A stretch of 64,000 bases of DNA from Escherichia coli (GTDB lineage Bacteria > Pseudomonadota > Gammaproteobacteria > Enterobacterales > Enterobacteriaceae): NCBI RefSeq assembly GCF_001677475.2, contig NZ_CP015229.1. One strand, given 5' to 3'. This document shows positions 7,573-49,703 of the stretch, piece after piece (position 1 is the first letter of the stretch; each line of letters starts with the position of its first letter). Both the position numbers and the translations under genes were made by a program. The notes beneath the pieces are model-generated. The model was not told the origin of the DNA. It made no database searches and was given only the letters and a program-made list of their open reading frames with translations.

Positions 7573-7584
7573 TTTTTGAGATAA

Positions 7585-7612
7585 AAATGCCAGCCGATCG
7601 GGCTGGCATTTT
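7585..7612. terminator. Bidirectional intrinsic terminator between macB (+) and cspD (-)
   Basis: Hairpin aaatgccagcc-gatc-ggctggcattt flanked by A/T runs on both sides, lying between two convergent genes. Confidence 0.6.
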
Positions 7613-7644
7613 GCCTTTAGGATGTACACAATGAGACAGAAGAG

Positions 7645-7869
7645 CTATGCGACTGCCGCTTCTACTTCGACGGGCACAATAACACTGGCGTGATTGCCTT
7701 TTGGCCCCTGGTGGACATCAAACTGAACGGATTGTCCAGCTTTTAGCGTTCTGTAACCATCCATCTGAATGGTGGAATAATGAGCGAAAATATCTTCGCC
7801 GCCGCCTTCAGGGCAGATGAAACCAAACCCTTTGGCATTGTTGAACCACTTAACAGTACCCTTTTCCAT
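7645..7869 (-). CDS. cspD: Cold-shock-domain protein CspD (stationary-phase replication inhibitor)
   Basis: ORF 7645..7899. Start taken at MEKGTVKWFNNAKGFGFI... (74 aa), containing the RNP1-like cold-shock motif KGFGFI. Confidence 0.9.
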   Translation of the reverse strand: MEKGTVKWFNNAKGFGFICPEGGGEDIFAHYSTIQMDGYRTLKAGQSVQFDVHQGPKGNHASVIVPVEVEAAVA

Positions 7870-8192
7870 GCTTCGACATCCTTCGCAAATCTTATACAAA
7901 TAAGATGGAATAAACCGGGGTCAGAGAGGGGGGCTGTTCAAAACCTCGCCAACTCTAGAAATACAATTTAGAGAATTAGGGCGAGCCGTCAAGCATTTGA
8001 CAGGGGGCAAGGGGCAGGTATGAATCAAAAATTTGAAGCAGTTAACGCTATTGACAGGAATGTGACAGATGTCGCTGATGCCAACGATAGATGATAGTTA
8101 TCTATCATGTGGAGTAGATTGGTCAGGCAAATAAGCTCTTGTCAGCGGCAGGGCGTTCTGCCGATAACCGTAACCGAAGATGATAACTGACA

Positions 8193-8513
8193 ATGGGTAA
8201 AACGAACGACTGGCTGGACTTTGATCAACTGGCGGAAGAAAAAGTTCGCGACGCGCTAAAACCGCCATCTATGTATAAAGTGATATTAGTCAATGATGAT
8301 TACACTCCGATGGAGTTTGTTATTGACGTGTTACAAAAATTCTTTTCTTATGATGTAGAACGTGCAACGCAATTGATGCTCGCTGTTCACTACCAGGGGA
8401 AGGCCATTTGCGGAGTCTTTACCGCCGAGGTTGCAGAAACCAAAGTGGCGATGGTGAACAAGTACGCGAGGGAGAATGAGCATCCATTGCTGTGTACGCT
8501 AGAAAAAGCCTGA
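8193..8513 (+). CDS. clpS: ClpS adaptor of the ClpAP protease (N-degron recognition)
   Basis: 106-aa [50 protein letters not shown]..., immediately upstream of clpA. Confidence 0.95.
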
Positions 8514-8543
8514 ATGCAGGCATAAAAATTGGGGGAGGTGCCT

Positions 8544-10820: not shown

Positions 10821-10844
10821 TCTGATTGTCAGGTAGGTTGGTCA

Positions 10845-10878
10845 AGTCCGTAATCTCGAAAGAGGTTGCGGACTTTTT
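10845..10878 (+). terminator. Putative intrinsic terminator downstream of clpA
   Basis: Inverted repeat agtccg...cggact followed by a T-run (ttttt) about 25 bp after the clpA stop. Confidence 0.5.
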
Positions 10879-11034
10879 ATTTATGGGGTGGAACGGTGAA
10901 AACCCTATTTTTGGAGGTGAAGGTAAGTTGTTGATAATTAGTGCTGCTGGAAAAGGTAAGGATAAAAAAGGGTGACAGCAGGAAAATGAGATGGTTTTGC
11001 TTTATTAACAACGGGCTAAACGTGTAGTATTTGA

Positions 11035-11122
11035 GTTCACTGCCGTACAGGCAGCTTAGAAATTCACAGGTAACATACTCCACCCGCCCACCATGTTCAC
11101 TGCCGTACAGACAGATAAAATG
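11035..11122 (+). CRISPR. Orphan type I-F CRISPR remnant: two 28-bp repeats and one 32-bp spacer, no cas genes in the window
   Basis: Repeat 1 gttcactgccgtacaggcagcttagaaa (11035..11062); spacer ttcacaggtaacatactccacccgcccaccat (11063..11094); repeat 2 gttcactgccgtacagacagataaaatg (11095..11122), degenerate at its 3' end. The repeat matches the I-F (Ypest-type) consensus I recall. The clpA-infA interval is a known site of such arrays in E. coli. Confidence 0.8.
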
Positions 11123-11165
11123 CGAAAAAAAAGCTCGCACTTTCGTACGAGCTCTTCTTTAAATA

Positions 11166-11253
11166 TGGCGGTGAGGGGGGGATTCGAACCCCCGATACGT
11201 TGCCGTATACACACTTTCCAGGCGTGCTCCTTCAGCCACTCGGACACCTCACC
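11166..11253 (-). tRNA. serW: tRNA-Ser (anticodon GGA)
   Basis: Reverse complement reads GGTGAGGTGTCCGAGTGGCTGAAGGAGCACGCCTGGAAAGTGTGTATACGGCAACGTATCGGGGGTTCGAATCCCCCCCTCACCGCCA: acceptor stem, long variable arm typical of tRNA-Ser, T-arm GGTTCGAATCC, encoded CCA end. Confidence 0.9.
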
Positions 11254-11505
11254 AAATTGTTTTGTCGCCTGACCTCATGGGGGCAACGGGGCGCTACTAT
11301 AGGGAGTTGGAGTAAAACGGTCAAGAAGAATTTTAATGATAATTATTGTTTGCTCATACTGTAAACAAGTTGTGCAGTATATCTACATCGAGACAAGTTA
11401 TGGATTTATACTTCCAAAGTACTTCATACATATCACAAAATAAAAAGGTCGGCTAAACCGACCTTTTACTCGTTCTTTCTCTTCGCCCATCAGGCGGTAA
11501 AACAA

Positions 11506-11727
<222 letters not shown>

Positions 11728-12008
11728 ATCCTCTGGGGTATCACTACCGTAATTTGAACCGGCAAGATAATGCCGAAGTTCTGTAAATAAGTAAAGATTT
11801 GCGCGCTAAATCGCAACAAACAGGTTCGGCACATTACTCCGAAAACACACGGCTAAGCCGCACCAAAAGCGCAACGTATAAGGGAGCGGTGAGATAAACG
11901 ATGGGCGTTACCTGACGCGAAAAATTCCTTATCGGCAGCGGGGTAATGAGCGTAACCAACTCTGCGACCGCAATTATAACACTCTGGGGAGAAATGTGCC
12001 GAAAACAT

Positions 12009-12713
12009 TCATTCTTGTGGTGAAAACAAGCACCGTGGTACCCAGAAATTATTCGGCAATCGTCCGAGGCGCATTTGATTGAGATAATTGAGATAATCCC
12101 GGCGAGGAATTTCGCAGGCACCAAGCGACGCTGTGTGATCGTTAAGTACCTGGCAGTCGATAAGTTTACCGCCATGACCAATAAATTCCTCACAGAATAC
12201 CAGAAGCGCCGTTTTAGACGCATTTTCCATCCGGCTGAACATGGACTCGCCACAAAATAGCGTTCCCTGGGCCACGCCGTACATACCGCCGACAAGCTCA
12301 TCTTCACGCCAGACTTCAATAGAGTGGGCATGACCGAGTTCGTGAAGGCGATGGTAGGCTTCGACCACGCCACGCGTGATCCAGGTTCCTTCTTCGCGAT
12401 CGCTGGCACAGCCTTCAATGACCTGACCAAAAGCGTAATTCATCGTGACTCGATAGGGCGAGCGTTTATGAAATCGCTTCATACTACGGCTGATATGCAG
12501 TGATTCTGGCCATAGCACCGCGCGAGGATCGGGCGACCACCAGAGGATGGGGTCGCCTGGAGAAAACCACGGAAAAATACCACGCTGGTAAGCCATTAAC
12601 AGGCGCGCAGGGCTAAGATCGCCCCCCAGTGCCAGCAGGCCGTTAGGCTCACGTAATGCGCCTTCCGGGGAAGGGAAGGCTATTGAATGGCGAGAAAGCT
12701 GAACCAGGCGCAT
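12009..12713 (-). CDS. aat: Leucyl/phenylalanyl-tRNA--protein transferase
   Basis: 234-aa ORF; position between infA and cydC and length match aat. Confidence 0.9.
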
Positions 12714-12754
12714 GACCGCAAAACTCCACGCTAGTCGGATCGTTCAATAATAGC

Positions 12755-14476
12755 TTACAAACCCTGCTTAAACTGGTAATAACGCCCCTGTCTGGCAAGC
12801 AGTTCTGCGTGAGTACCTTGCTCAATAATTTGCCCGTTGTCCATCACTATTATTTTCTGGAAACGAGAGAGTCCGCGAAGTCGATGGGTGACCATTAACA
12901 CCGTTTTCTCATGCATCATTTCTGCAAGCAATTCAAGGATCTGACTTTCGGTTGTGGCATCTAAGCCTTCTGTAGGTTCATCCAGCAATACCAGCGGCGC
13001 ATCATGTAACAGCGCACGGGCGATAGCCAGACGGCGCAGTTCACCACCGGAGAGCTGGCGTCCGCCTTCACCTAACCAACTGTTGAGACCTGCATCCTCG
13101 AGCAGCTTCTCCAGACCAACGCGACGTAAGATCTCCGCCAGAGCCTCATCACTACTGCCAGGTGAGGCGAGTAACAGATTATCACGCAGCGTGGCGCTAA
13201 ACAGATGCACTCGCTGTGGCACAACGCTGATGGTCTGTCGTAGAGTCGCTTCATTCAGACTGGCTATGGGGCTATCGTTAAGCAAAATCTCGCCCTGTTG
13301 CGGGTCCCATGCGCGGGTCAGCAGTTGTAACAGTGTTGATTTGCCGCATCCGGTTCGCCCGAGAATCGCTATATGTTCCCCGGCGTTTACCTGAAGAGAA
13401 ATCCCTTTAAGTGCCTGTTGGGATTGCTCCGGATAAGTGAACTGAACATCCCGTAATGTCAGCGAAACGCGATCGGCAACACGAGTTTGGGTATCAGGGA
13501 AGGTGACCTCCGGTTTTTGATCCGTTAAATCAGTGATCCGAACGGCAGAGGCAATGACTTGCCCCAGATGCTGAAATGCACCCGTTACTGGTGCCAGTGC
13601 TTCAAACGCGGCTAACGCGCAGAAGACAAACAGGGCAATTAACGCGCCGGGTTGAGCATTGCCGCCAACGCCGCCAGACGCCATCCACAGCATCAGGATC
13701 ACCGCTAACGCGCCAATGAGCAGCATTATCGCTTGCGACAATGCGGTTAGTTCAGATTGACGGCGTTGCGCTTCCAGCCATTGAATTTCTGTATTCTCTA
13801 GTTGCGTGCGATAACGATCGCTGGCACCAAAAATGGTCAGCTCAGCTTGCCCTTGCAGCCAGGCCGTCAGTTGTTGGCGATACTGCCCGCGAAGATGAGT
13901 CAGATTTTGCCCGGTGCTTTTTCCCGCACGATAAAACAGCGGTGGCATCAGGAAAAGCGTCAGTAACATAATGCCGCCCAGCGTAAAGGCGAGGGTGAAA
14001 TCAAGGAAACTTAACCCGACTGTCACCACCATAATCACCACAAAAGCGCCCACCAGCGGCGAAATAACGCGCAGGTAAAGATGATCGAGCGTATCAACAT
14101 CCGCCACCACGCGGTTGAGCAATTCGCCCTGACGATAGCGCGCCAGTCCGGCAGGGGAGAGGGGTAGCAATTTGCTGAAGGTGTAAATGCGCAGATGCTG
14201 CAACACGCGGAAAGTCGCGTCGTGACTTACCAGACGTTCAAAATAACGCCCGGCAGTACGGGTGATTGCTGCGCCACGCACGCCCGCAGCGGGTAGCATG
14301 TAGTTGAAGCTGTACAGTCCGGCAACCCCCGCAATCGCTGAGGCGGAGAGGAACCAGCCCGAAAGTGTCAACAGACCGATACTGGCGAGCAGCGTGACAA
14401 TTGCCAGCACGATACCAAGACTTAACATCCATTTATGACGTTTATACAGTGCCAGATAGGGTAGCAAAGCGCGCAT
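12755..14476 (-). CDS. cydC: Glutathione/cysteine ABC exporter CydC (cytochrome bd assembly)
   Basis: 573-aa ORF. N-terminal six-helix transmembrane domain plus ABC ATPase (Walker A GRTGCGKST, signature LSGGELRR, Walker B LLLDEPTEGLD). Confidence 0.95.
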   Translation of the reverse strand: MRALLPYLALYKRHKWMLSLGIVLAIVTLLASIGLLTLSGWFLSASAIAGVAGLYSFNYMLPAAGVRGAAITRTAGRYFERLVSHDATFRVLQHLRIYTFSKLLPLSPAGLARYRQGELLNRVVADVDTLDHLYLRVISPLVGAFVVIMVVTVGLSFLDFTLAFTLGGIMLLTLFLMPPLFYRAGKSTGQNLTHLRGQYRQQLTAWLQGQAELTIFGASDRYRTQLENTEIQWLEAQRRQSELTALSQAIMLLIGALAVILMLWMASGGVGGNAQPGALIALFVFCALAAFEALAPVTGAFQHLGQVIASAVRITDLTDQKPEVTFPDTQTRVADRVSLTLRDVQFTYPEQSQQALKGISLQVNAGEHIAILGRTGCGKSTLLQLLTRAWDPQQGEILLNDSPIASLNEATLRQTISVVPQRVHLFSATLRDNLLLASPGSSDEALAEILRRVGLEKLLEDAGLNSWLGEGGRQLSGGELRRLAIARALLHDAPLVLLDEPTEGLDATTESQILELLAEMMHEKTVLMVTHRLRGLSRFQKIIVMDNGQIIEQGTHAELLARQGRYYQFKQGL

Positions 14477-33778: not shown

Positions 33779-33785
33779 TCATCAT

Positions 33786-33803
33786 GCCCCGGTTCGCCGG
33801 GGC
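33786..33803 (+). terminator. Hairpin just downstream of ycaM (weak terminator candidate)
   Basis: gccccgg-ttcg-ccggggc perfect inverted repeat 8 bp after the ycaM stop; no clear U-tract. Confidence 0.35.
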
Positions 33804-34875
33804 TGTGATATCAAATAGACTAAAATTAGATCAGGCCTGATAAGGCAAAAGTTAAGTTTTTCTTAAGAGATGAAAGAAAATCAACGCTACCGTGATAATA
33901 CGAATTTTAGTTATCGGAGACCATTATTTTTAGATATGGTGATAGTTTTAATTATTGGTTATTTTGCAAGTTATTATTTTGGGCTCTGGAGTAAACTCTT
34001 GCGCATAGTAATAACATGATTTTTACGGCTAAATTTTCAACAAAGATTGGTAATGTAAACTCGTATTTTTTGATTTGCATCAATGAATTCGCACGTTGCT
34101 AATTATGGTTAAATTTGCTGAGAATGATTGCGGTTATTGTTTGGATATGCAGATGGTATATTGATTCACTGGCGTAATATTCTGTAAAAATTATATTTTA
34201 TAGTGTTTTAATCTGGCAAAAATCATCTCCCGACAGAATCTTCTCATGCCTGGTGTAGTTCACAGTCTTTTGTTTTAAAAATAAAATAGTGCTCTAATGT
34301 TGCATCTATTGTTTTATCGAGCGTGTGTTCCTGAAAATATTTATCTGTTAGGTTGATGGACAAATTACAGCCTGGGCAGTGAAATTTTCACGATCACTTT
34401 CTGACTAAATCTTACTTTAAGGTTACTGATTAATATATTTGGGCTAAGAGAGTCGTATTACACATGTCTCAAAAAAGATAAATAAACAGAAAGGATTACT
34501 CACAATAGATACTAATAACACTTTTGGATAGTTATAGAGTAGAAGCCACGACTCAGCAGGATGTAGTAGCTGTGTTGTTATAAGTTAATTTTTTCATGGC
34601 TAAATTATTTCGTTGAAAAATTAACGAAAGGCGGTAGCGTGGGTGAAAGATACAAAATGAGTGTTACATATAACAATATTACCTTGGTTAAAATAGAATG
34701 AATGATAATCACCTGTGGAAATTAAGAAAAAAGTAATCTTCTCATCATGATATATTTTTTATATGGAATAGTGAAATTAATAAAATCATAAAGAGGAGAG
34801 CAACATCGTCTAATATACAGAACGTTATACGATATGATATGAAGCTATTAATAACATTTTAGTCAGAATACCAGT

Positions 34876-37224
34876 ATGTATAGCATTACCGAAAAATTAA
34901 ACTCAAGATTTAACACTGCGGTTATATTAGCTGTTACTGTCTATATTGTCTTGTCATTTATTACCGCAATTGATTTCCATAAAAAAATAGCAGAAAACTC
35001 TGCACAGATTAACCTTATACTCATCAATAACAATTTGAATAATTTTTTTTCTAAAGTTGAAAAAGAGGCTGATGCATTAAAAGATGCAATCTATCTGTTA
35101 CATGATGAAGATGAAATAAAGCGAGCAGTCCTTCATCGCATGAAAAAAATAGACGCGGTTAATTTAGTAGGGATAATGCTCAATAATGGAAAATATCTTA
35201 GCTTTATTCGAACTGAGAATGGGGAGGTAAAATTTCTGGGGCAATCAGAACCCGGTAAACCTTTTATTGGTGACGATGGTGATATCAGCGATAACTACTT
35301 TAATCCGGAATCACGCCCATGGAATAAATTACCGAGGGGGACTTATTCAAAATGGTCACCATGGTATAATTGTTATGGTATTGCCGGAAAAAAATGTTTT
35401 TCGTTTTCACTACGACCATCCGAAGAAGAAAAAAATTCATTTGCTTTGAAGTTAATACATCTGGATGTTGATGAAAAATATTTCAGTAATTTTTTAAATA
35501 AACTGGGTGGTGATTCTGATATTTTATTCATGGAACAAAACAAAAGGATTATGGTGGGTAATGAAAAATCAATGTTACATCTTATTGTCCGTGATTTATC
35601 GGGAAGTTATAACATAAGCAATAATAGTGGCAACTATACAGACAATGTTATCTCACTCCCCTGGCTTCCTGATGTCAGATTCCATTATTTCCACTATCAA
35701 AAATCAGAAGATACAAACATCAATAAATATTTTACACTGATGTTTTTATGTGGCTTGGTTTGTTTCTGTTTATTATGGTATATCGTTGAAAAAATAACAA
35801 GAAAAATCAAAGGTGAATCCAGCAAACTGATAGAACATCTGAAAAAATTAGCTAATTCAGTATATCGCAACGACACAATTGATATTGTGCAAAATGACAG
35901 TGGTGAGATTGTTGAACTCAAAAAGATCATTAATAATATCAGCGATAAATACAAGGAGCGTATGGACCGATTACTTAATCTTGTGTCCTATGAACAAGGA
36001 AGTTGCTTTTATATTAATAAGGCTATTATTGAAACTAATAATAAAACCTATTTGGCAATTGGTATGCTTTGCATCTATGGATTAGAGTTTGTTGAAGCGG
36101 TATATGGAAATCAGAAATTTCATGAGATTTTTAATGATATAAAATCTAAGATATCACAAAAATATTCAAAATATTGTGATATCGTAAAAATCTCAACTGA
36201 AACATACTTGTTGCTATGTCACACTGATTGCGAAGAGTTCATCGAAAAATTATCGGTTTTAAACTTTCCTGAACATATATTTTGCATAAGAAATATATAT
36301 ATCCACAAGATTGCCATTTGCGAAAATTTTTCAGGGGAAAATGTATCGATTTATGAAAGGAAACTGAAACTGGCATTAACAGCTATGCGGGAAAATAAAG
36401 AATCTGAATTTATTTTTTATGATGACATCAAAGTCCATGAACTTGATCAAAAGGTCTGGGTGGCAGGAAATATAAAAAAAGCGATTGCGAGTAATGAGCT
36501 TTATTTAGTATATCAACCGATTGTTGATATGGATAATAATAGGGTTGTAGGCGCAGAGGCGTTATGTCGCTGGTTGTCCTGCGAAAATGGGGTAATACCG
36601 CCATCAATTTTTGTACCTGTTGCTGAAGAAATAGGATTAATTAAAGAACTGGGTGATTTTGTTCTCGAAACAGCTATTAGCGAATTTGGGGTGTTTAGTT
36701 GTGAATATGAGGTTGCTAACGATTTTCTCCTGCATATCAATGTTTCTCCCTGGCAATTAAATGAATTTGACTTCCACACTCGTGTTCTTACTTTAATTAA
36801 TGCATTTGGTGTAAATGTTGAACAAATCTGCCTGGAGATCACCGAATCAGCAGTAAAAGATATAAATGATAGCTTTTACAATAATATAAATATTTTAAAA
36901 GAAAATGGTATCAAGATTTCCCTTGATGATTTCGGAAGTGGATTAGCTGACCTGAAAAAACTTTATAAAGTAAGACCTGATAGCATTAAAATTGATTCAG
37001 AGTTTACCTCTGGTATTTTCGATGAAACTAACAAGGTTGTATATTTTATATCCAATCTTGCTCGTGAAGAAAATATGCCGGTAATAGCTGAAGGTGTTGA
37101 AACTGAAAGTCAGGCTAGAGAGTTGCAAAAATTAGGATTTTCTCATGTTCAGGGATACTTATACCAGAAACCGTTACCGTTTTCAGAATGGCATATAGAC
37201 AACAAACCGAAAAAAAGAAAATAA
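34876..37224 (+). CDS. Membrane-bound c-di-GMP phosphodiesterase: TM, periplasmic sensor domain, TM, cytoplasmic linker region, EAL domain
   Basis: 782 aa. Hydrophobic helices near residues 15-35 and ~285-305. EAL-domain motifs all present: QPIVD, EALCRW, NVSP, LEITES, DDFGSG, KIDSEF, AEGVETE, QGYLY. No GG(D/E)EF signature upstream of the EAL domain. Confidence 0.85.
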   Translation: MYSITEKLNSRFNTAVILAVTVYIVLSFITAIDFHKKIAENSAQINLILINNNLNNFFSKVEKEADALKDAIYLLHDEDEIKRAVLHRMKKIDAVNLVGIMLNNGKYLSFIRTENGEVKFLGQSEPGKPFIGDDGDISDNYFNPESRPWNKLPRGTYSKWSPWYNCYGIAGKKCFSFSLRPSEEEKNSFALKLIHLDVDEKYFSNFLNKLGGDSDILFMEQNKRIMVGNEKSMLHLIVRDLSGSYNISNNSGNYTDNVISLPWLPDVRFHYFHYQKSEDTNINKYFTLMFLCGLVCFCLLWYIVEKITRKIKGESSKLIEHLKKLANSVYRNDTIDIVQNDSGEIVELKKIINNISDKYKERMDRLLNLVSYEQGSCFYINKAIIETNNKTYLAIGMLCIYGLEFVEAVYGNQKFHEIFNDIKSKISQKYSKYCDIVKISTETYLLLCHTDCEEFIEKLSVLNFPEHIFCIRNIYIHKIAICENFSGENVSIYERKLKLALTAMRENKESEFIFYDDIKVHELDQKVWVAGNIKKAIASNELYLVYQPIVDMDNNRVVGAEALCRWLSCENGVIPPSIFVPVAEEIGLIKELGDFVLETAISEFGVFSCEYEVANDFLLHINVSPWQLNEFDFHTRVLTLINAFGVNVEQICLEITESAVKDINDSFYNNINILKENGIKISLDDFGSGLADLKKLYKVRPDSIKIDSEFTSGIFDETNKVVYFISNLAREENMPVIAEGVETESQARELQKLGFSHVQGYLYQKPLPFSEWHIDNKPKKRK

Positions 37225-37228
37225 AGCA

Positions 37229-38569
37229 ATGTTCAAATATAAAAAAAAGGCGGCAGTGATCTGTTTTTTGTATTTTTTGTGCGTCGCTGTAGTAACTTGT
37301 TATTTGTACACCATTCATGTTAAAGGCCGTATAAATTCGGTGAAGGTATCTATTGTAGATAGTGGGCTTGCAATAGCTAATGTTTCTGAGTATCGCCGCT
37401 CAGTATCTAATAATATATTTTATGAACTTGAGGTTTCGCCAGAAGAGTTGTTAAAAAAAATACGCAATAGCTTTGCTGGCTATGAAAACCCTGGATATTT
37501 GTATGATCTCGGTCCTTATATGATTAGCGATGGTAAATGTATCAAAGTCACAACGAAAGGAGATAATTTTTGTGACGACATAGTTTCCTCTATTAGGGTA
37601 ATTAATGAATTTGAAAGAGGCATTATTAGCTTAAAAAATAAGTGCTATGTTTATTATGCTCATCCCATTGCAAAACGTACAAGTTTGATATCAGTGGTAG
37701 ATCCTGAACGTTATTTATCTTTGATAAGAAATCAATCAGGGGAACGAGAAGATATCTATGTATCATTTTATGATATTAATGATAATGAAAAGAAAATCGC
37801 AGGTGATGATTTTTTGATAAATGATGCAGTATTTGAGATGTCAGCTATCACTCTGTCGTATTCTTATCTTCCAGAAATGATGTTTATTGTTGCCTATAAA
37901 AAAAGTAAATATCTATATATATGTGCGTTTTTCGTTTTTGCATCGGCAATATCTGCAGTCATAATGTATGTTTATTATGTTAAATTATTGCGTGATATTA
38001 TAAATAAGGGTAGATTGGAAAAAGAATCTATATTGTCGAATCATCAATATGATTTACGTGGAGAAAATCTATTCTTTAATACGGAAGAGATTAATGCAAT
38101 TCGAGAGATATATGACTTTGGCACTTGTGATGCATTAACCAGGGCTTCTGGTCGCCGGAGTTTTGATAAAGAAATCAAGATACTGAGAAAAAATTTTGGC
38201 TACCTGTGTCTATTTGATGTGGATAAATTTAAAACCATTAATGATAAGTTTGGTCATTTATTTGGTGATGAAGTACTCATCAAACTTGTTAATATCATTA
38301 AAGAAGAGTTACCCCGTCGTGAAGGGGAAATATACCGGTTTGGCGGTGATGAGTTTGCTATTATTTATTATGAGAAAGATAAAAATAAGCTATCAAGAAT
38401 TTTGCACAGAGTTGTTCATTTCGCCATTGGTGGGTTAAATTGTAGTTGCAGTATAGGTGTTGCCAGCACAGATGAGTGCATGAATAACATTGAACGGTTG
38501 AAATTGCTGGCAGATGAACGGTTATATAAAAGTAAGCAAAATGGCCGAGCACAGATAACGTGGTGTTGA
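37229..38569 (+). CDS. Membrane-bound diguanylate cyclase: TM, periplasmic sensor domain, TM, GGDEF domain
   Basis: 446 aa, starting 5 bp after the upstream stop. Two hydrophobic helices flank a ~200-aa periplasmic segment. GGDEF-domain motifs: DALT..RR, LFDVDKFKTINDKFGH, GDEVL, RFGGDEFAIIY, ADERLYKSKQNGR. No RxxD inhibitory site immediately upstream of GGDEF. Confidence 0.85.
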   Translation: MFKYKKKAAVICFLYFLCVAVVTCYLYTIHVKGRINSVKVSIVDSGLAIANVSEYRRSVSNNIFYELEVSPEELLKKIRNSFAGYENPGYLYDLGPYMISDGKCIKVTTKGDNFCDDIVSSIRVINEFERGIISLKNKCYVYYAHPIAKRTSLISVVDPERYLSLIRNQSGEREDIYVSFYDINDNEKKIAGDDFLINDAVFEMSAITLSYSYLPEMMFIVAYKKSKYLYICAFFVFASAISAVIMYVYYVKLLRDIINKGRLEKESILSNHQYDLRGENLFFNTEEINAIREIYDFGTCDALTRASGRRSFDKEIKILRKNFGYLCLFDVDKFKTINDKFGHLFGDEVLIKLVNIIKEELPRREGEIYRFGGDEFAIIYYEKDKNKLSRILHRVVHFAIGGLNCSCSIGVASTDECMNNIERLKLLADERLYKSKQNGRAQITWC

Positions 38570-38653
38570 TATTTTAATTTGCATGGCATTGGTCATCGAT
38601 GTTTACAAAAATCACACAGTTCAAGTTATATTATTAATGAATCGTTAAGTGCA

Positions 38654-40768
38654 ATGCTCATAAAAAATAAAGTAATATTAAACAAAATCCTTTTGGTTGT
38701 TGCTATACTGCTATGTTTTGTTTTTTTATCAATTGTTGAACAGCCCCTTGGATTTTATCAACAAACATTATTTTCAATTATTATTTGTATCGCTGCTATC
38801 TTCCTTAATTTTCTCAAAGGAAGGATAATTACTCTGATTCTAATGGGTGTTGGAATACTCATATCATCCCGATATCTATGGTGGCGTTACTCTTCTTCAG
38901 TAATCCTGGATGAATTTCCAGACTGTTTATTTTCAGTCACGCTATTAGTTGCTGAGACGTATGCATGGTTTGTTTTATTACTTGGTTACTTTCAGGTTTG
39001 CTTCCCGCTGAACCGAGAAAGTATACCCTTACCAGAGAATAAAGAAGAATGGCCCGTTGTTGATATATTAATCCCCACATATAACGAACCCTTTACAGTC
39101 GTTAAGAATACAGTTTATGGTGCGTTGGCCTTAGACTGGCCAACGGATAAATTAAATATCTGGCTCCTTGATGATGGCGCCAGGGACGAGTTCAGGAAAT
39201 TCGCGAACGAGTTAGGTATTTACTATGTCGCAAGAGAAACACATGAACATGCTAAGGCCGGAAATATAAATAATGCGCTTAAAATAGCTAATGGCGAATT
39301 TGTTGCTATTTTCGATTGCGATCATATACCCTCGGTTTCTTTTTTAAAGAAAACGATGGGCTGGTTTATCGCCGATAAAAAATTATCGATGTTGCAAACA
39401 CCACATCATTTTTTTTCCCCCGACCCTTTTGAGCGAAATTTGGGGCAGTTTCGGCAAAAGCCAAATGAAGGACACCTTTTTTATGGGTTAATCCAGAATG
39501 GTACGGATACATGGAATGCTTCATTTTTTTGTGGTTCATGTGCAATCATCCGTAGATCTGCTCTGGATGAGGTTGGAGGCATTGCAGTCGAAACAGTAAC
39601 AGAAGATGCGCATACGTCGTTACGCTTGCATCGTGCAGGTTATAGCTCTGCGTATCTTCGCTATCCTCTGGCTGCCGGGCTAGCCACCGAAACATTGTCT
39701 GCTCATATTGGACAACGGATTCGGTGGGCTCGAGGCATGATTCAAATCTTGCGTATTGACAATCCATTATTGGGCAAGGGGCTGACATTATCACAGCGCC
39801 TTTGCTATCTCAGCAGCATGATGCATTTTTTATCAGGTGTGCCACGCCTGATTTTCTTGTTCGCACCGTTATGTCCTATTTTCTTTTCGGTCAATCTGAT
39901 CGATGCATCAGTTGCAGATATTATGTCTTATGTTTTACCTTATCTATTTGTTATTATTTTAACTAATTCAAGAGTACAAGGTAAATACAGACATTCATTC
40001 TGGAATGAGATTTATGAAATGGTTCTGGCCTGGTATATTACGCTACCAACGCTTGTAGCTTTACTTGCGCCAGCAAAAGGTCGTTTTAACGTTACGGCCA
40101 AAGGGGGACTGATAAAAAATAAGTTTGTTGACTGGCGAATTTCCTATCCCTATCTTATTTTTGCTATTTTAAATGTAATCGGGCTGATAATAGGTGTTAT
40201 TAATGTTTATAGTTTGCAAGGGCATATTGCCATCTTGAATTTGTTTTGTTTAATCTGGTTGTTTTATAACGCAATTATTATTGGCGCAACTTTGGCTGTT
40301 TCTATTGAACAAAAGCAGGTGCGTTTTTCTCCCCGTATTGATGTTTCTTTCAAGGGCGTTATACAACTGGATGATGGACGGCGCTATCCTTGTTCTGTTC
40401 TTGATTTTTCCGAAGGAGGATTAGGTGTAATCCTTGATAATATCTCCGACGTAAAAGATATGCTTAAAGCACAGCAATTGTCTCTTTATCTGGATGATAG
40501 CAACGGGAAATGTGATATTCCGGTAGAAATAGTTCATGCTTACAATAATAAAATTGGTCTGAAGATTATGCCAATGAGTTATGAACAAAGTGTTAATTAT
40601 GTAAGAGCAACGTTTTCTCGTGATTCATTATGGCAAGAGTGGAATAATAAAATTAGACGGGACAATATTCTAAAGAGTTTTTTTGAAATATGTTTCATCT
40701 CTCTGAAAGGTTATTGCAATATGGTTTTTTATATTCTGCGGACACTGAAAAGCAGTTCCAAAAGTTAG
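38654..40768 (+). CDS. BcsA-like family-2 processive beta-glycosyltransferase with C-terminal PilZ domain (c-di-GMP-gated synthase)
   Basis: ORF 38579..40768 begins with TTG; first in-frame ATG is at 38654 (704 aa). Catalytic motifs: DDGARDE, FDCDH, QTPHHFFSPDPFERN, FFCGSCA, TEDAHTSLRLH, QRIRWARG. PilZ motifs RFSPRID and DFSEGGLG. Confidence 0.85.
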   Translation: MLIKNKVILNKILLVVAILLCFVFLSIVEQPLGFYQQTLFSIIICIAAIFLNFLKGRIITLILMGVGILISSRYLWWRYSSSVILDEFPDCLFSVTLLVAETYAWFVLLLGYFQVCFPLNRESIPLPENKEEWPVVDILIPTYNEPFTVVKNTVYGALALDWPTDKLNIWLLDDGARDEFRKFANELGIYYVARETHEHAKAGNINNALKIANGEFVAIFDCDHIPSVSFLKKTMGWFIADKKLSMLQTPHHFFSPDPFERNLGQFRQKPNEGHLFYGLIQNGTDTWNASFFCGSCAIIRRSALDEVGGIAVETVTEDAHTSLRLHRAGYSSAYLRYPLAAGLATETLSAHIGQRIRWARGMIQILRIDNPLLGKGLTLSQRLCYLSSMMHFLSGVPRLIFLFAPLCPIFFSVNLIDASVADIMSYVLPYLFVIILTNSRVQGKYRHSFWNEIYEMVLAWYITLPTLVALLAPAKGRFNVTAKGGLIKNKFVDWRISYPYLIFAILNVIGLIIGVINVYSLQGHIAILNLFCLIWLFYNAIIIGATLAVSIEQKQVRFSPRIDVSFKGVIQLDDGRRYPCSVLDFSEGGLGVILDNISDVKDMLKAQQLSLYLDDSNGKCDIPVEIVHAYNNKIGLKIMPMSYEQSVNYVRATFSRDSLWQEWNNKIRRDNILKSFFEICFISLKGYCNMVFYILRTLKSSSKS

Positions 40769-40833
40769 TTCTAATTTCTGACTGCTAATTAAATATATTG
40801 TTTGTGTTTATTATGGTTGTTGAATTTTTTAAA

Positions 40834-43134
40834 ATGGAAAGAAAATTTTTGAGATTAAGTGCTGCGATAATTGGCTTGGGGTTATTATGTTTTTACCAGG
40901 CAAATACAGCATCGGCTACAGATACAGTAACCAGTAAGTCTTCCTCTGGAGAAGTATTACCATCTATCCAGAAGACAAATATCTCTGCTTATGAGAAAGA
41001 GTCGTCTCGCCATTTTAAACTCCCATTTACACAAATCGCACCAGCTCCAGGAAACATAGTCCTGAATGGCGTTAACCCACAGGGGCAAATTGAGTTTGGT
41101 ATGCGTAGCGATGAAATAGTATCAGAAGCAAAACTAAAACTTGAATACACTACATCACCGTCGCTGATCCCTGTCCAGTCACAGCTTAAGGTCTATCTTA
41201 ATGACGAGTTGATGGGGGTATTGCCGATTACCAAAGAACAACTGGGGAAGAAAACGCTGGCGGAAATAACTCTTAACCCATTGTATTTTTCTGATTTTAA
41301 TCGCTTGCGCCTCGAATTAATTAGTCACTACCAGAGCGCCTGTGAAAACCCGACCAGCAGCAATTTGTGGCTTGATATTGGACGTACCAGTGAACTTGAA
41401 CTGGTATTTCAGAGACTTAATCTGAAAAATGATCTTTCATATTTTCCTGTACCGTTTTTTGACCCGCGAGATAACCGCACTAATACATTGCCGATGGTTT
41501 TTGCAGGTACTCCTGAGACTGGTTTGCAGCAGGCATCAGCTATTGTCGCTTCGTGGTTTGGTGCGCAATCTGGCTGGCGTGGTCACCGATTTCCGGTTTT
41601 CTATAACCAGTTACCGGAAAGTAATGCAGTGGTCTTTGCCACTAACAATAGACGCCCGGACTTTCTGCGCGAGCATCCGTTGGTGAATGCGCCTGTTATT
41701 AAAATGATCAGTCATCCACAAAATCCTTTTATCAAATTGCTGGTACTTTTGGGCCGCGATGACAAAGATTTATTACAGGCGGCAAAAGGCCTTGCACAGG
41801 GAAATATACTTTTTCGCGGCGATAGTGTGATCGTAAATGAAGTGACGCCGTTACTGCCGCGTAAACCTTATGATGCGCCAAACTGGGTACGCACTGACCG
41901 TCCTGTAACTTTCGCAGAGCTTAAAAATTATGAAGGGCAGTTACAGGCAAGTGGCCTGGAGTCTGCGGCAATTAATGTTTCATTTAATTTGCCACCTGAT
42001 CTTTTTCTATTGCGTAATCGTGGGGTTGATATGAAGATTAACTATCGCTATACCACGCCAACGATAGGTGGTTCACGCATGGATGTCAGCCTTAATAACC
42101 AGTACCTTGAATCTTTCCGGCTAAGTCCGCAATCTGCTACCGATAGATTGTTGTTACGTTTACCGTTATTGCAAGAATTGTTGGATGGTAATAATGGAAT
42201 TACCATTCCTGCGCTGACGTTGGGGGCGCTTAATCAATTGCGATTTAATTTTGAGTACATTAATACAATGCCGCGTTCTGATGCTGATAGCTGTATTATT
42301 TCCAGGCCTCTAAAAAATCATGCGGTTATTGCAGATGATTCCACTATCGATTTTTCAAAGTACCATCACTTTATCGCAATGCCAGATTTACGCGCTTTTG
42401 CCAGCTCAGGCTTTCCATTTAGCCGCATGGCCGATCTATCAGAAACGGTTGTGGTTATGCCTGAAAATCCTGGTACAACGCAAGTTGAAACATTATTAAA
42501 TACCCTTGGACTGATTGGTGCTCAAACTGGATTTCCGGCAATTAATCTGACAATTACTGATGATATAGGTTCTGTCCAGGGTAAGGATTCAGATATTCTG
42601 CTTATAGGAACACTTCCGCAAGAATTTGCAGATAAACAGCAAATTAATCTGCTCATTGAGGCAACAACGAGTTGGGTAAAAAGCCCAATGCGGAACACTG
42701 ATTACGCAAAAATTATGGCAGATAAAAACGATCAAAAACCTGAAATACAAACAACTATAAATTCCCCATTGCCAATGGCGGCGATAGTTGGTTTTCAGTC
42801 CCCATATCATGCCCAACGTAGCGTAATTGCTTTAATGTCCGAGGGATCACGCGGCGATACGCTACTCAACAATGCGTTAATTAATAGTACAAAACGCGGC
42901 AATATTTTTGGTTCAGTCGCGGTTATTCGCGAATCTGGCGTCAATAGTTTACAGGTTGGAGATACTTATTACGTTGGGCATCTCCCCTGGATTGAACGAG
43001 TGCAATATGTGTTAGCCAGACACCCCATTCTACTGGCAGTCCTGGCAACTCTCAGTGTGGTGCTATTGGCGTGGGTAGTATGGCGTCTGTTACGTAACAT
43101 TAGTCGCCGTCGTCTGAACCCTCATCAACAGTAA
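40834..43134 (+). CDS. BcsB-like periplasmic synthase subunit with C-terminal membrane anchor
   Basis: ORF 40798..43134 begins with TTG; start taken at MERKFLRLSAAIIGLGLLCFYQANTASA (signal-peptide-like). C-terminal single TM helix ILLAVLATLSVVLLAWVVWRLL followed by basic residues, as in BcsB. Confidence 0.8.
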   Translation: MERKFLRLSAAIIGLGLLCFYQANTASATDTVTSKSSSGEVLPSIQKTNISAYEKESSRHFKLPFTQIAPAPGNIVLNGVNPQGQIEFGMRSDEIVSEAKLKLEYTTSPSLIPVQSQLKVYLNDELMGVLPITKEQLGKKTLAEITLNPLYFSDFNRLRLELISHYQSACENPTSSNLWLDIGRTSELELVFQRLNLKNDLSYFPVPFFDPRDNRTNTLPMVFAGTPETGLQQASAIVASWFGAQSGWRGHRFPVFYNQLPESNAVVFATNNRRPDFLREHPLVNAPVIKMISHPQNPFIKLLVLLGRDDKDLLQAAKGLAQGNILFRGDSVIVNEVTPLLPRKPYDAPNWVRTDRPVTFAELKNYEGQLQASGLESAAINVSFNLPPDLFLLRNRGVDMKINYRYTTPTIGGSRMDVSLNNQYLESFRLSPQSATDRLLLRLPLLQELLDGNNGITIPALTLGALNQLRFNFEYINTMPRSDADSCIISRPLKNHAVIADDSTIDFSKYHHFIAMPDLRAFASSGFPFSRMADLSETVVVMPENPGTTQVETLLNTLGLIGAQTGFPAINLTITDDIGSVQGKDSDILLIGTLPQEFADKQQINLLIEATTSWVKSPMRNTDYAKIMADKNDQKPEIQTTINSPLPMAAIVGFQSPYHAQRSVIALMSEGSRGDTLLNNALINSTKRGNIFGSVAVIRESGVNSLQVGDTYYVGHLPWIERVQYVLARHPILLAVLATLSVVLLAWVVWRLLRNISRRRLNPHQQ

Positions 43135-43246
43135 TTCATCATCATTTCTATTTTGCGGCTCCATTCTGTCCTGACTTTATACAGGCAGGGAGCTGCGCCC
43201 GTTCTGTTTTTAATAAAAAGTGAGTTAACACCTGATTGAGGCAGGC

Positions 43247-46200
43247 ATGTACAAATTCACCCTAAATTTACTCACAATATCCCTTGGTTTGGCGGTAATG
43301 TCGATGGCGAAAGCCACACCAACTGTACACAAGCTGTTAATGGCGCAGATTCGGTTAGGCGAAGACATTCATCGTGAAGATCTGGTCGAACAGTCGCTTT
43401 ATCGTCTTGAATTGGCGGAACCTGATAATCCAGATGTCGTTGCGGCGCGTTTTCGCTATCTGCTGCGTAAGGGGGATATTGAAGGTGCGCAAAAACAACT
43501 TGCCAGACTTTCCCTGTTCGCTCCTGATTCAAAAATATATAAAGCATCGCGCACGGCCATGCGACTTTCTTCGCCTGAGGGGCGTCAGGCACTGCAAATG
43601 GCACGCTTACAAGCTATCTCCGGGCGACATAAAGAGGCTATCGACAGTTACGACAAGCTATTTAACGGGGCACCGCCAGATATCGAAATGGCGCTGGAAT
43701 ACTGGGGGGCAATGACGCAAATTTCCTCCCGTCGCAACGAAGCGATTCGTCAGTTGAAAATACTTAATATTGATAATCCTGACTCTGGTGCCATATTTGG
43801 GGCGCTGGGGCAGGCGTATTCCCAGAATGGCGATCGCGCTAATGCGGTGGCGAATCTGGAAAAAGCCCTCGCACTGGATCCGCACAGCAGCAACAACGAC
43901 AAATGGAACAGTCTGCTGAAGGTGAATCGCTACTGGCTGGCGATCCAGCAGGGCGATGCTGCGCTGAAAGCCAATAATCCTGACCGCGCAGAGCGTCTGT
44001 TCCAGCAGGCGCGCAATGTCGATAACGCCGACAGCTATGCGGTGCTGGGGCTGGGCGATGTGGCGATGGCGCGCAAAGATTACCCCGCCGCCGAACGTTA
44101 TTATCAGCAGACGCTGCGTATGGACAGCGGCAACACCAACGCCGTGCGCGGGCTGGCGAATCTTTATCGCCAGCAGTCGCCGGAAAAAGCCGAAGCGTTT
44201 ATTGCCTCGCTCTCTGCCAGCCAGCGGCGCAGCGTTGATGACATCGAACGCAGCCTGCAAAACACGCGTTTATCACAGCAGGCAGAGGCACTGGAAAATC
44301 AGGGTAAATGGGCGCAGGCGGCAGCACTTCAGCGCCAGCGACTGGCGCTCGATCCCGGCAGTGTGTGGATTACTTACCGGCTTTCGCAGGATCTCTGGCA
44401 GGCCGGACAACGCAGCCAGGCCGATACGTTAATGCGCCATCTGGCGCAGCAGAAGCCGAACGACCCGGAGCAGGTTTACGCTTACGGGCTGTATCTCTCT
44501 GGTCATGACCAGGACAGAGCGGCGCTGGCGCATATCAACAGCCTGCCGCGCGCGCAATGGAACAGCAATATTCAGGAGCTGGTTAATCGACTGCAAAGCG
44601 ATCAGGTGCTGGAAACCGCTAATCGCCTGCGAGAAAGCGGCAAAGAAGCTGAAGCGGAAGCGATGCTGCGCCAACAACCACCTTCCACGCGTATTGATCT
44701 CACGCTGGCTGACTGGGCGCAACAACGACGTGATTATACCGCCGCCCGCGCTGCATATCAGAATGTCCTGATGCGGGAGCCAACTAACGCCGATGCCATT
44801 CTTGGTCTGACGGAAGTGGATATTGCTGCCGGTGACAAAGCGGCAGCACGTAGCCAGCTGGCGAAACTGCCTGCCACCGATAACGCGTCGCTGAACACTC
44901 AGCGGCGCGTGGCGCTGGCACAGGCGCAGCTTGGCGATACCGCAGCGGCGCAGCAGACGTTTAATAAGTTGATCCCGCAGGCAAAATCTCAGCCGCCGTC
45001 GATGGAAAGCGCGATGGTGCTGCGCGACGGTGCGAAGTTTGAAGCGCAGGCGGGCGATCCAAAGCAGGCGCTGGAAACCTACAAAGACGCCATGGTCGCA
45101 TCCGGTGTGACTACGACGCGTCCGCAGGATAACGACACCTTTACCCGACTGACCCGTAACGATGAGAAAGATGACTGGCTGAAGCGCGGTGTGCGCAGCG
45201 ACGCGGCAGATCTCTATCGTCAGCAGGATCTTAACGTCACCCTTGAGCACGACTACTGGGGATCGAGTGGCACCGGTGGTTACTCCGACCTGAAAGCGCA
45301 CACTACCATGTTGCAGGTGGATGCTCCGTATTCTGACGGGAGGATGTTCTTTCGCAGTGATTTCGTCAATATGAACGTCGGCAGTTTCTCCACTAATGCC
45401 GATGGCAAATGGGATGACAACTGGGGCACCTGTACATTACAGGACTGTAGTGGCAACCGCAGCCAGTCGGACTCCGGTGCCAGCGTGGCGGTCGGCTGGC
45501 GAAATGACGTCTGGAGCTGGGATATCGGTACCACGCCGATGGGCTTCAACGTGGTGGATGTGGTCGGCGGCATCAGTTACAGCGATGATATCGGGCCGCT
45601 GGGTTACACCGTTAACGCCCACCGTCGGCCCATCTCCAGTTCTTTGCTGGCCTTTGGTGGGCAAAAAGACTCTCCGGGCAATACCGGGAAAAAATGGGGT
45701 GGCGTGCGTGCCGACGGCGTGGGGCTAAGCCTGAGCTACGATAAAGGTGAAGCAAACGGCGTCTGGGCATCGCTTAGCGGTGACCAGTTAACCGGTAAAA
45801 ATGTCGAAGATAACTGGCGCGTGCGCTGGATGACGGGCTATTACTATAAGGTCATTAACCAGAACAATCGCCGCGTCACAATCGGCCTGAACAACATGAT
45901 CTGGCATTACGACAAAGATCTGAGTGGCTACTCACTCGGTCAGGGCGGTTACTACAGTCCGCAGGAATACCTGTCGTTTGCCATACCGGTGATGTGGCGG
46001 GAGCGCACGGAAAACTGGTCGTGGGAGCTGGGTGCATCTGGCTCGTGGTCGCATTCGCGCACCAAAACCATGCCGCGTTATCCGCTGATGAACCTGATCC
46101 CGACGGACTGGAAAGAGGATGCCGCCAGCCAGACCAACGACGGCGGCAGCAGTCAGGGCTTTGGCTACACGGCGCGGGCGTTACTTGAGCGTCGCGTCAC

Positions 46201-46354
46201 GTCCAACTGGTTTGTCGGCACGGCGATTGATATCCAGCAGGCGAAAGATTATGCGCCAAGCCATTTCCTGCTCTACGTGCGGTATTCCGCCGCCGGATGG
46301 CAGGGCGACATGGATTTACCGCCGCAGCCGCTGATACCTTACGCCGACTGGTAA
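43247..46354 (+). CDS. BcsC-like outer-membrane export component (signal peptide, TPR repeats, C-terminal beta-barrel)
   Basis: 1035 aa. Signal peptide MYKFTLNLLTISLGLAVMSMAKA; SD gaggcagg upstream. Many TPR-like repeats (e.g. GALGQAYSQNGDRANAVANLEKALALDP); C-terminal Gly/aromatic-rich region ending in W (...LIPYADW). GC content rises sharply after the first ~0.6 kb. Confidence 0.85.
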   Translation: MYKFTLNLLTISLGLAVMSMAKATPTVHKLLMAQIRLGEDIHREDLVEQSLYRLELAEPDNPDVVAARFRYLLRKGDIEGAQKQLARLSLFAPDSKIYKASRTAMRLSSPEGRQALQMARLQAISGRHKEAIDSYDKLFNGAPPDIEMALEYWGAMTQISSRRNEAIRQLKILNIDNPDSGAIFGALGQAYSQNGDRANAVANLEKALALDPHSSNNDKWNSLLKVNRYWLAIQQGDAALKANNPDRAERLFQQARNVDNADSYAVLGLGDVAMARKDYPAAERYYQQTLRMDSGNTNAVRGLANLYRQQSPEKAEAFIASLSASQRRSVDDIERSLQNTRLSQQAEALENQGKWAQAAALQRQRLALDPGSVWITYRLSQDLWQAGQRSQADTLMRHLAQQKPNDPEQVYAYGLYLSGHDQDRAALAHINSLPRAQWNSNIQELVNRLQSDQVLETANRLRESGKEAEAEAMLRQQPPSTRIDLTLADWAQQRRDYTAARAAYQNVLMREPTNADAILGLTEVDIAAGDKAAARSQLAKLPATDNASLNTQRRVALAQAQLGDTAAAQQTFNKLIPQAKSQPPSMESAMVLRDGAKFEAQAGDPKQALETYKDAMVASGVTTTRPQDNDTFTRLTRNDEKDDWLKRGVRSDAADLYRQQDLNVTLEHDYWGSSGTGGYSDLKAHTTMLQVDAPYSDGRMFFRSDFVNMNVGSFSTNADGKWDDNWGTCTLQDCSGNRSQSDSGASVAVGWRNDVWSWDIGTTPMGFNVVDVVGGISYSDDIGPLGYTVNAHRRPISSSLLAFGGQKDSPGNTGKKWGGVRADGVGLSLSYDKGEANGVWASLSGDQLTGKNVEDNWRVRWMTGYYYKVINQNNRRVTIGLNNMIWHYDKDLSGYSLGQGGYYSPQEYLSFAIPVMWRERTENWSWELGASGSWSHSRTKTMPRYPLMNLIPTDWKEDAASQTNDGGSSQGFGYTARALLERRVTSNWFVGTAIDIQQAKDYAPSHFLLYVRYSAAGWQGDMDLPPQPLIPYADW

Positions 46355-46395
46355 TGAGGTAGAATCAGAAGGTTAAAACTCGGAAATTAAATCCA

Positions 46396-46438
46396 GTAAA
46401 TCAGCGTCGAGCATGTTCTTAACGCTGATTTACTTTTT
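46396..46438 (+). terminator. Intrinsic terminator after the BcsC-like gene (may also serve convergent pflA)
   Basis: gtaaatcagcgt...acgctgatttac inverted repeat followed by ttttt, 42 bp after the stop at 46354. Confidence 0.65.
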
Positions 46439-46488
46439 ACTACTAAAGGAAGGGGTGGCAGGTCGGAATTCAGCCTGCACATGATGTT

Positions 46489-47420: not shown

Positions 47421-49703
<2,283 letters not shown>

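Follow-up and report, generated by a model that had tools for sequence, protein, structure and literature searches.

What are a cyclase and a phosphodiesterase for the same messenger doing side by side at the head of a cellulose synthase cluster? The question is raised by a 64-kb stretch of Escherichia coli DNA (assembly GCF_001677475.2, contig NZ_CP015229.1), called the window below, in which all coordinates are positions. Here two adjacent genes, gene 1 and gene 2, are followed on the same strand by bcsA, bcsB and bcsC. An earlier note on this DNA had read them as a phosphodiesterase and a cyclase, with a separate periplasmic sensor domain apiece, that feed an adjacent PilZ synthase. We find that the two genes are, by sequence, diverged paralogs of the PdeI (YliE)/DgcI (YliF) pair of Escherichia, and that the five-gene cluster pde-dgc-bcsA-bcsB-bcsC is a horizontally acquired accessory cellulose island in the E. 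coli chromosome. Control of the island's own synthase by cyclic di-GMP (c-di-GMP) made and degraded by this pair is the reading that we consider probable, and most of what follows concerns how well it stands up. The two genes and their parts, with residues given as amino acids (aa), are as follows.

34876..37224, + strand: gene 1, PdeI (YliE)-like membrane sensor phosphodiesterase, 782 aa (homology to K-12 PdeI; Pfam CHASE9 and EAL)
34972..35730, + strand: gene 1 periplasmic sensor, aa 33-285, CHASE9, predicted double-Cache fold (PF17153; AlphaFold2, AF2; Foldseek)
35788..36459, + strand: gene 1 cytoplasmic linker and divergent GGDEF-like region, aa 305-528 (gapless alignment to K-12 PdeI)
36469..37173, + strand: gene 1 EAL domain, aa 532-766, full catalytic motif set (Pfam EAL, E 8.5e-65)
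37229..38569, + strand: gene 2, DgcI (YliF)-like membrane sensor diguanylate cyclase, 446 aa (homology to K-12 DgcI; Pfam GAPES2 and GGDEF)
37307..37915, + strand: gene 2 periplasmic sensor, aa 27-229, GAPES2, predicted dCache-like fold (PF17156; AF2; Foldseek)
38126..38551, + strand: gene 2 GGDEF domain, aa 300-441, active site RFGGDEF, RREG at the I-site position (Pfam GGDEF, E 1.8e-24)

Gene 1 aligns with K-12 PdeI, also 782 aa long, across 775 of 782 residues at 40% identity with 5 gaps (BLASTP), and its exact protein is present in NCBI as E. coli ANO88098.1. Its architecture is collinear with that of the PdeI family: a transmembrane (TM) helix, CHASE9, a second TM helix, a linker with divergent GGDEF, and EAL. 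NCBIfam holds no PdeI equivalog model, and its remaining phosphodiesterase models score gene 1 far under their cutoffs. All seven EAL motifs of the complete set that had been described could be located (EALCR561, NVS622, EITE654, DDFGSG684, KID705, EGVE739 and QG759). With EALxR, the Mg-binding residues and the Q of QG in place, the domain has the sequence features of a competent EAL phosphodiesterase.

That description had passed over about 220 aa of the protein, residues 305-528 between the second TM helix and EAL. This region aligns gap-free with PdeI, G411 of gene 1 corresponding to G412 of PdeI, where PdeI has a HAMP domain plus what the literature describes as a divergent GGDEF domain. 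It falls inside the alignments of gene 1 to two NCBIfam GGDEF-EAL models (GepA, residues 286-773; PRK10060, residues 386-773). Pfam GGDEF has zero matches in it, and a sequence search of the PDB with it was empty. Against the profile of the gene 2 GGDEF domain, hhalign returned a probability of 0.2%, which is not significant, with a single aligned helix in the right register. The GGDEF motif itself is lacking, and STETY stands at the corresponding place.

Gene 2 starts 4 nucleotides (nt) after gene 1, which corrects a gap earlier given as 5 bp. It is 42% identical to K-12 DgcI end to end, across 445 aa, shares the TM, GAPES2, TM, GGDEF architecture of the DgcI family, and is present in NCBI as the exact protein ANO88099.1. 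Its GGDEF motif lies at residue 372, within RFGGDEF at 370-376; the upstream substrate and metal residues FDVDKFKTINDKFGHLFGD are conserved, and active cyclases of solved structure, such as 3IGN (E 7e-17), align with the domain. The RxxD I-site, five residues upstream of GGDEF, serves product inhibition and is optional, its absence being compatible with membership among the cyclases. Gene 2 has RREG at this position and no RxxD, in keeping with the intact GGDEF site without RxxD that had been claimed for it. RxxD is likewise absent there in all 8 homologs, and for YliF of strain CFT073 the I-site is given as GE (PMC3484386). The EAL and GGDEF catalytic motifs of the two enzymes are invariant over 8 paralogs and orthologs. 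Because these homologs share only 37-42% identity, the invariance is far above chance.

What might the two enzymes sense? Each protein has two TM helices with hydropathy peaks of 2.2-2.5 (Kyte-Doolittle). In gene 1 the helices at aa 14-32 and 286-304 enclose a loop of 253 aa, and in gene 2 those at aa 8-26 and 230-248 enclose one of 203 aa, as expected from the segments of about 200-270 aa, bracketed by two hydrophobic helices, in the earlier note. The loops are predicted to be periplasmic, because the catalytic domains use cytoplasmic nucleotides. The same note could assign the sensors to no family; a profile search names CHASE9 (PF17153) for gene 1 (E 7e-42 and 8.6e-43 in two runs) and GAPES2 (PF17156) for gene 2 (E 5.5e-41 and 1.2e-40), the latter match spanning the whole loop. 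The overall plan of a sensor phosphodiesterase and a sensor cyclase is thus borne out in its domains, helices and loops.

The predicted structures place both sensors in one broad fold class. AF2 models, built on shallow 8-sequence paralog alignments, reach a mean confidence (pLDDT) of 85 and a predicted TM-score (pTM) of 0.83 for aa 33-285 of gene 1, and 77 and 0.72 for aa 27-229 of gene 2. Compared against the PDB with Foldseek, both models retrieve dCache or tandem-PAS sensor domains for almost all of the top 50 matches, at probability 1.0 and TM-scores of 0.5-0.63. The matches of gene 1 include TlpC, CqsR, CtaA, Mlp24/37, PctC and an Aeromonas dCache cyclase, and the top matches of gene 2 are the dCache sensors of KinD and CqsR. 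By predicted fold, both sensors therefore match dCache-type ligand-binding domains, in which two PAS-like alpha/beta modules come after a long N-terminal helix. The idea that they are homologous to each other was rejected (hhalign probability 0.3%), and the lack of detectable homology is compatible with separate cues and different ligands.

Within the gene 1 sensor, 18 periplasmic positions are invariant in the 8-homolog alignment, among them R147, W149, Y164 and D197, while position 142 is F or Y. The AA_motif of dCache_1 domains consists of Y121, R126, W128, Y144 and D173 (PctA numbering) in the distal pocket, with 13-17 residues between its two parts (PMC8915833). F142, R147, W149, Y164 and D197 of gene 1 are spaced like this motif, the gap from W to Y being 15; the resemblance is one of sequence, a lead by which these residues may line the pocket. 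Two weak sequence links favour the register. A paralog of gene 1 on a Salmonella plasmid aligns its NYIPEIRQWY...IDV with NYDPRVRPWY...IDV of the dCache chemoreceptor 6MNI, although weakly (E 0.004), and this was the single match from PDB sequence searches with the sensor profiles, which were otherwise empty. One gene 1 paralog has a weak Pfam dCache_1 match (i-E 1.9e-3); the window's own gene 1 protein has no Pfam dCache match. A literature search on PDB entry 6MNI returned nothing relevant.

Each sensor also carries a pair of cysteines that is invariant in all 8 paralogs: C166/C174 in gene 1 (35371-35397) and C104/C115 in gene 2 (37538-37573). We speculate that these may form disulfides, recalling the redox-controlled CSS-domain phosphodiesterases.

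Each sensor belongs to a very narrow family. An exhaustive HMMER search with the gene 1 sensor against 1.84 billion representatives recovered 12 clusters, and word-indexed protein searches with the sensor regions gave a handful of near-identical Escherichia fragments. A GTDB-wide scan with a single peptide pattern, which has limited power for other genera, found Escherichia loci and two contigs labelled Sporosarcina and Nocardioides, both of which are likely contaminants.

The pair sits at the head of an island with sharp borders, whose parts are as follows.

33779..46488, + strand: accessory island, low-GC, 12.7 kb, a regulatory region and five genes (blastn against K-12; GC)
33779..34875, + strand: non-coding leader/promoter region, 1.1 kb, AT-rich, GC 0.317 (lower conservation than the coding parts)
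38654..40768, + strand: bcsA, 704 aa, BcsA3-type, with C-terminal PilZ (NCBIfam NF008558, 1015 bits, cutoff 992)
40834..43134, + strand: bcsB, 766 aa, periplasmic partner of BcsA (NCBIfam NF008325, 1188.6 bits, cutoff 922)
43247..46354, + strand: bcsC, 1035 aa, outer-membrane protein with tetratricopeptide repeats (TPR) and porin, mosaic (NCBIfam NF008520, 1892 bits, cutoff 858)
46396..46433, + strand: terminator-like hairpin followed by a T-run, 42 nt past the bcsC stop (RNAfold)
GC by segment: gene 1, 0.327; gene 2, 0.334; bcsA, 0.381; bcsB, 0.433; 5′ part of bcsC, 0.497; 3′ part of bcsC, 0.584

In a blastn comparison with the ycaM-pflA region of K-12, positions 33779-46488 stand exactly in place of the ycaN-ycaK segment and reach from the ycaM stop codon to that of pflA. 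Identity of the flanks to K-12 is 97%, ending at 33777 and resuming at 46489; to E. coli overall the flanks are 97-98% identical. The annotated neighbours of the island in strains N3 and E7-1N7 agree with this placement. At 33779 a GC of about 0.50 gives way to 0.32, from which it rises stepwise along the island. Its five open reading frames (ORFs) are co-directional on the + strand and all intact in the window. Once the starts of bcsA and bcsB are set to the ATGs at 38654 and 40834, by comparison with annotated orthologs, the intergenic gaps in gene order are 4, 84, 65 and 112 nt.

The synthase that adjoins the pair is indeed a PilZ protein. The island BcsA shares 52% identity across 690 aa with K-12 BcsA, lacks the N-terminal extension of about 150 aa of the core protein, and carries the PilZ motifs RxxxR and DxSxxG as RFSPR (557-561) and DFSEGG (584-589). 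Directly upstream of it, and in the same direction, stands the pair; bcsB and bcsC follow. Absent from the island are bcsZ, bcsQ and bcsEFG.

Among 5,426 complete E. coli genomes the island occurs in nine, always at the ycaM-pflA site and with the same gene order. Two of them (N3 and GF43) are 95% identical to the window across the island and seven (E7-1N7 and others) are 84.5% identical. In these complete genomes the clade of gene 1 and gene 2 is always accompanied by the island bcs genes (9/9), and close relatives are annotated in E. ruysiae and further Escherichia. A second lineage, on E. coli plasmids, shows the same association: plasmid p13C1065T-3 has a pair that is only 37% identical, followed in the same order by bcsA (73% identical), bcsB and bcsC. 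Recurrence of the linkage in so distant a plasmid lineage supports a putative functional coupling between pair and synthase. In PLSDB, a DgcI-like gene is found on 110 plasmids, a PdeI-like sensor on 72 and a BcsA at 60-80% identity on 121, almost all of them from Escherichia.

Selection points the same way for every part of the cluster. Between the window and the 84.5% variant, at synonymous divergence (dS) of about 0.7, the ratio of nonsynonymous to synonymous divergence (dN/dS) is 0.08-0.15 for each of the five genes. It is likewise 0.08-0.15 when the gene 1 sensor, linker and EAL and the gene 2 sensor and GGDEF are taken separately, with 0.077 for the gene 1 middle region. By these estimates all five genes and their sub-domains are under purifying selection.

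The last gene of the cluster is a mosaic. Residues 178-1035 of the island BcsC match positions 300-1157 of the NF008520 model. In a sliding window, the 5′ 530 nt or so of bcsC are only 65-73% identical to K-12 bcsC, and a 366-nt stretch encoding 122 aa of TPR is missing relative to the K-12 gene. The 3′ 2.5 kb, from about 43880 on, have a GC of 0.58 and share about 95% identity with the core bcsC of E. coli. On p13C1065T-3 the entire bcsC is about 98% identical to that of K-12. The pattern points to recombination, or to gene conversion, involving the accessory and the core copy of bcsC. The bcsB-bcsC spacer of the same plasmid contains the group II intron gene ltrA.

Several further features lie at the island's edges. 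The leader is 54-86% identical to that of strain E7-1N7, below the coding parts, and positions 33779-34875 gave zero Rfam matches at E <= 0.1, so that no regulatory RNA was found there. A 49-aa ORF in the leader (33870-34019), with a hydrophobic stretch, was considered and is probably not a gene; it is kept in N3 and E69 and disrupted in E7-1N7. Directly after the ycaM stop, at the left border, a GC-rich hairpin CATGCCCCGGTTCGCCGGGGCTG occupies 33783-33806 (dG -16.7, RNAfold); it may serve as terminator of ycaM or belong to the recombination joint. At the right end, the hairpin at 46396-46433 has a 12-bp outer stem and a short inner stem (dG -18.8 kcal/mol, RNAfold), followed by ACTTTTTAC. Beyond the island, a 750-aa ORF on the + strand (47430-49682) lies antisense to nearly all of pflB (47421-49703, minus strand) and is probably a shadow ORF.

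How would such a cluster work? In the mechanism that we favour, and hold to be probable with real room for doubt, the five genes would be co-transcribed from the AT-rich leader, the cyclase would produce c-di-GMP and the phosphodiesterase would remove it. A small periplasmic ligand, a different one for each enzyme, would bind in the dCache-type pocket and gate its activity. The resulting c-di-GMP level would set the occupancy of the PilZ domain of the island BcsA, and with it turn the synthesis of unmodified beta-glucan (cellulose) on or off. Since the cyclase has no I-site, it would escape product inhibition, and the paired phosphodiesterase would then act as the off-switch. Local signalling dedicated to the island synthase is plausible, and is favoured by the conserved synteny and purifying selection described above.

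A number of observations weigh against this mechanism, and the alternatives draw on several of them. Consensus scans for promoters and terminators gave counts at chance level and are uninformative, so the operon is deduced from gene geometry only. Inside it, the bcsB-bcsC spacer (43135-43246) has a strong GC-rich hairpin at about 43154-43198 followed by the T-run GTTCTGTTTTTAAT, a possible internal terminator or attenuator. The match to the island is split in four of the nine genomes. A GC of 32% suggests H-NS-type silencing under laboratory conditions, by our inference. Finally, the experiments of a preprint on accessory cellulose clusters, to which we return below, covered the bcs4 type only (bioRxiv 10.1101/2025.05.09.653004).

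The pair also occurs where there is no synthase to control. In K-12, the gsiD-pdeI-dgcI-rimO locus has the same order of the two genes, with a 7-nt gap and no synthase nearby, and on the Salmonella Saintpaul plasmid NZ_CP022492.1 (locus 9649-13323) a pair that is 37-39% identical lies beside replication genes with no bcs nearby. The pair is thus not intrinsically bound to a synthase. Conversely, in two of the four genomes with a split match, those of strains SCU-172 (locus 7527-10625) and GF43 (locus 7717-11185), an IS1A or IS3-family insertion sequence (IS) lies in the island's bcsB, and the phosphodiesterase and cyclase genes are intact. These cases fit a view of the pair as a sensor unit of two parts inherited together, perhaps as a PdeI-like/DgcI-like hetero-complex, that adjusts the overall c-di-GMP pool or acts on some other target and owes its proximity to bcs to co-mobilisation on plasmids and islands. 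Four lineages that are 37-42% identical to one another, two of them the synthase-free ones, retain the order of phosphodiesterase then cyclase, the genes nearly abutting or slightly overlapping, and the plasmids with a DgcI-like gene outnumber those with a PdeI-like sensor. We nevertheless think this explanation unlikely, if the most serious of the competitors. In complete E. coli genomes the window's clade of the pair never occurs apart from bcs3 genes, hitch-hiking alone hardly explains an order conserved in two bcs-linked lineages at only 37% identity, and the five genes have comparably low dN/dS.

A different difficulty concerns the sign of gene 1. Overexpression of K-12 PdeI raised c-di-GMP 11-fold, an effect abolished by G412S (PMC11651652), and this report leaves the net sign of gene 1 uncertain. 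Gene 1 might accordingly raise c-di-GMP in vivo, either by way of its divergent GGDEF region or because it activates the partner cyclase, in which case both genes would push the synthase on. Conservation of G411 and of the whole middle region, at the dN/dS given above, would suit this idea. Yet a region with STETY in place of the GGDEF motif, and with neither Pfam nor hhalign support, is hardly catalytic; the EAL site has its full motif set, unchanged across the homologs, and in an overexpression screen with phage N4 K-12 PdeI behaved like other phosphodiesterases (PMC8669469). We judge it improbable that both genes act in the same direction.

Least probable of all is a relic island, silenced or in decay, whose pair has no current role, for although the island's GC of 32-38% and 1.1-kb AT-rich leader are typical of xenogeneically silenced DNA, bcsB is broken by IS elements in some strains and the island is as rare as the genome count above implies, every gene and sub-domain is under strong purifying selection at dS of about 0.7, all five ORFs are intact in the window, and E. 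coli, E. ruysiae and further Escherichia all retain the locus.

Ligand-gated control of the co-encoded BcsA by the two dCache-type enzymes remains our preferred reading, and the pair matters in two respects. It shows that a mobile cellulose-synthase cassette is able to carry its own signal input, so that local c-di-GMP signalling has here a natural case on which to be tested, and it offers a handle on the ligands and targets of E. coli PdeI and DgcI. A bolder speculation, which we consider doubtful, is that the CHASE9 domain of the PdeI family, that of gene 1 included, is a cryptic, highly diverged dCache_1AA amino-acid sensor with F/Y142, R147, W149, Y164 and D197 as its pocket residues, and that PdeI and DgcI form an ancient module with two inputs that ancestrally gated accessory cellulose synthases, the K-12 pair being an orphaned copy. 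If true, this would supply the first ligand class and the first output for PdeI and DgcI, which rank among the least understood enzymes of c-di-GMP turnover in E. coli.

Comparison with known systems places the pair more precisely. In E. coli, DgcC (YaiC/AdrA) and PdeK (YhjK) control core BcsAB locally, as source and sink of the c-di-GMP that reaches the PilZ domain of BcsA, and they are the precedent for the mechanism proposed here (PMC8669469). As in the island, a membrane cyclase is combined with a membrane phosphodiesterase, and pdeK lies beside bcsC. The sensor families of DgcC and PdeK are different, however, and dgcC is unlinked to bcs and controlled by CsgD. In that system, physical association with BcsB has been demonstrated.

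An arrangement of similar logic is reportedly found in Komagataeibacter (Acetobacter) xylinus, whose cdg operons (pdeA-dgc), described by Tal and colleagues in 1998, are said to have a phosphodiesterase gene followed by a cyclase gene and to set c-di-GMP for cellulose synthase. The cdg proteins are reportedly cytoplasmic PAS-GGDEF-EAL hybrids that sense O2 or redox state and have no periplasmic sensors, and their operons are said not to lie beside bcs.

The sensors themselves may be set beside the dCache_1 domains of PctA, Mlp37, Tlp3, CtaA, KinD and CqsR. These share the predicted fold, and gene 1 has the pattern [F/Y]-x4-R-x-W...Y...D. In sequence they are no more than about 10-15% identical, gene 1 has Phe where the motif has Tyr121, and there is an additional conserved Cys pair.

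Closest in the proteins is the K-12 pair PdeI (b0833)/DgcI (b0834), which has the same length, architecture, Pfam sensors, order of phosphodiesterase then cyclase and gap of a few nt, and whose cyclase likewise lacks the I-site (PMC3484386). The island pair differs in its sensor domains, which are only about 28-37% identical to those of K-12, and in its GC of 33% against a core-genome level. It also precedes bcsABC, whereas the K-12 pair lies between gsiD and rimO.

Closest in the arrangement are the accessory clusters of Escherichia with BcsA2, BcsA3 and BcsA4 that are described in a preprint from the Römling laboratory by Hosseinpourlamardi et al. (bioRxiv 10.1101/2025.05.09.653004). According to that text, bcsA3 belongs to a chromosomal bcsABC cluster, the accessory synthases are without the N-terminal 150 aa, and YliE/YliF homologs adjoin the bcs2 and bcs3 clusters, for which a connected function is hypothesised (bioRxiv 10.1101/2025.05.09.653004). 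The parts of it that were examined yielded nothing on the exact ycaM/pflA insertion point, the mosaic bcsC, the dCache fold of GAPES2 or the AA-motif-like residues of CHASE9 (bioRxiv 10.1101/2025.05.09.653004). What we add to the known arrangement, then, are the dCache-type predicted folds, the motif-like residues of CHASE9, the purifying selection, the insertion site and the mosaic bcsC. The island shares with bcs3 a chromosomal cluster of bcsABC only, away from the core bcs locus, adjoining YliE/YliF-like genes and restricted to Escherichia. Its BcsA has 362 identities over the 872 residues of K-12 BcsA, or 41%, the figure quoted for BcsA3, and there is no essential difference between the two. 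Because these traits match, the cluster in the window appears to be an instance of the published arrangement; a pair ahead of an accessory bcsABC is already known from the 2025 preprint and is not novel. With both proteins in named families, the finding confirms existing knowledge rather than extending it, and what the window holds is a bcs3-type cluster headed by its own diverged PdeI/DgcI pair.

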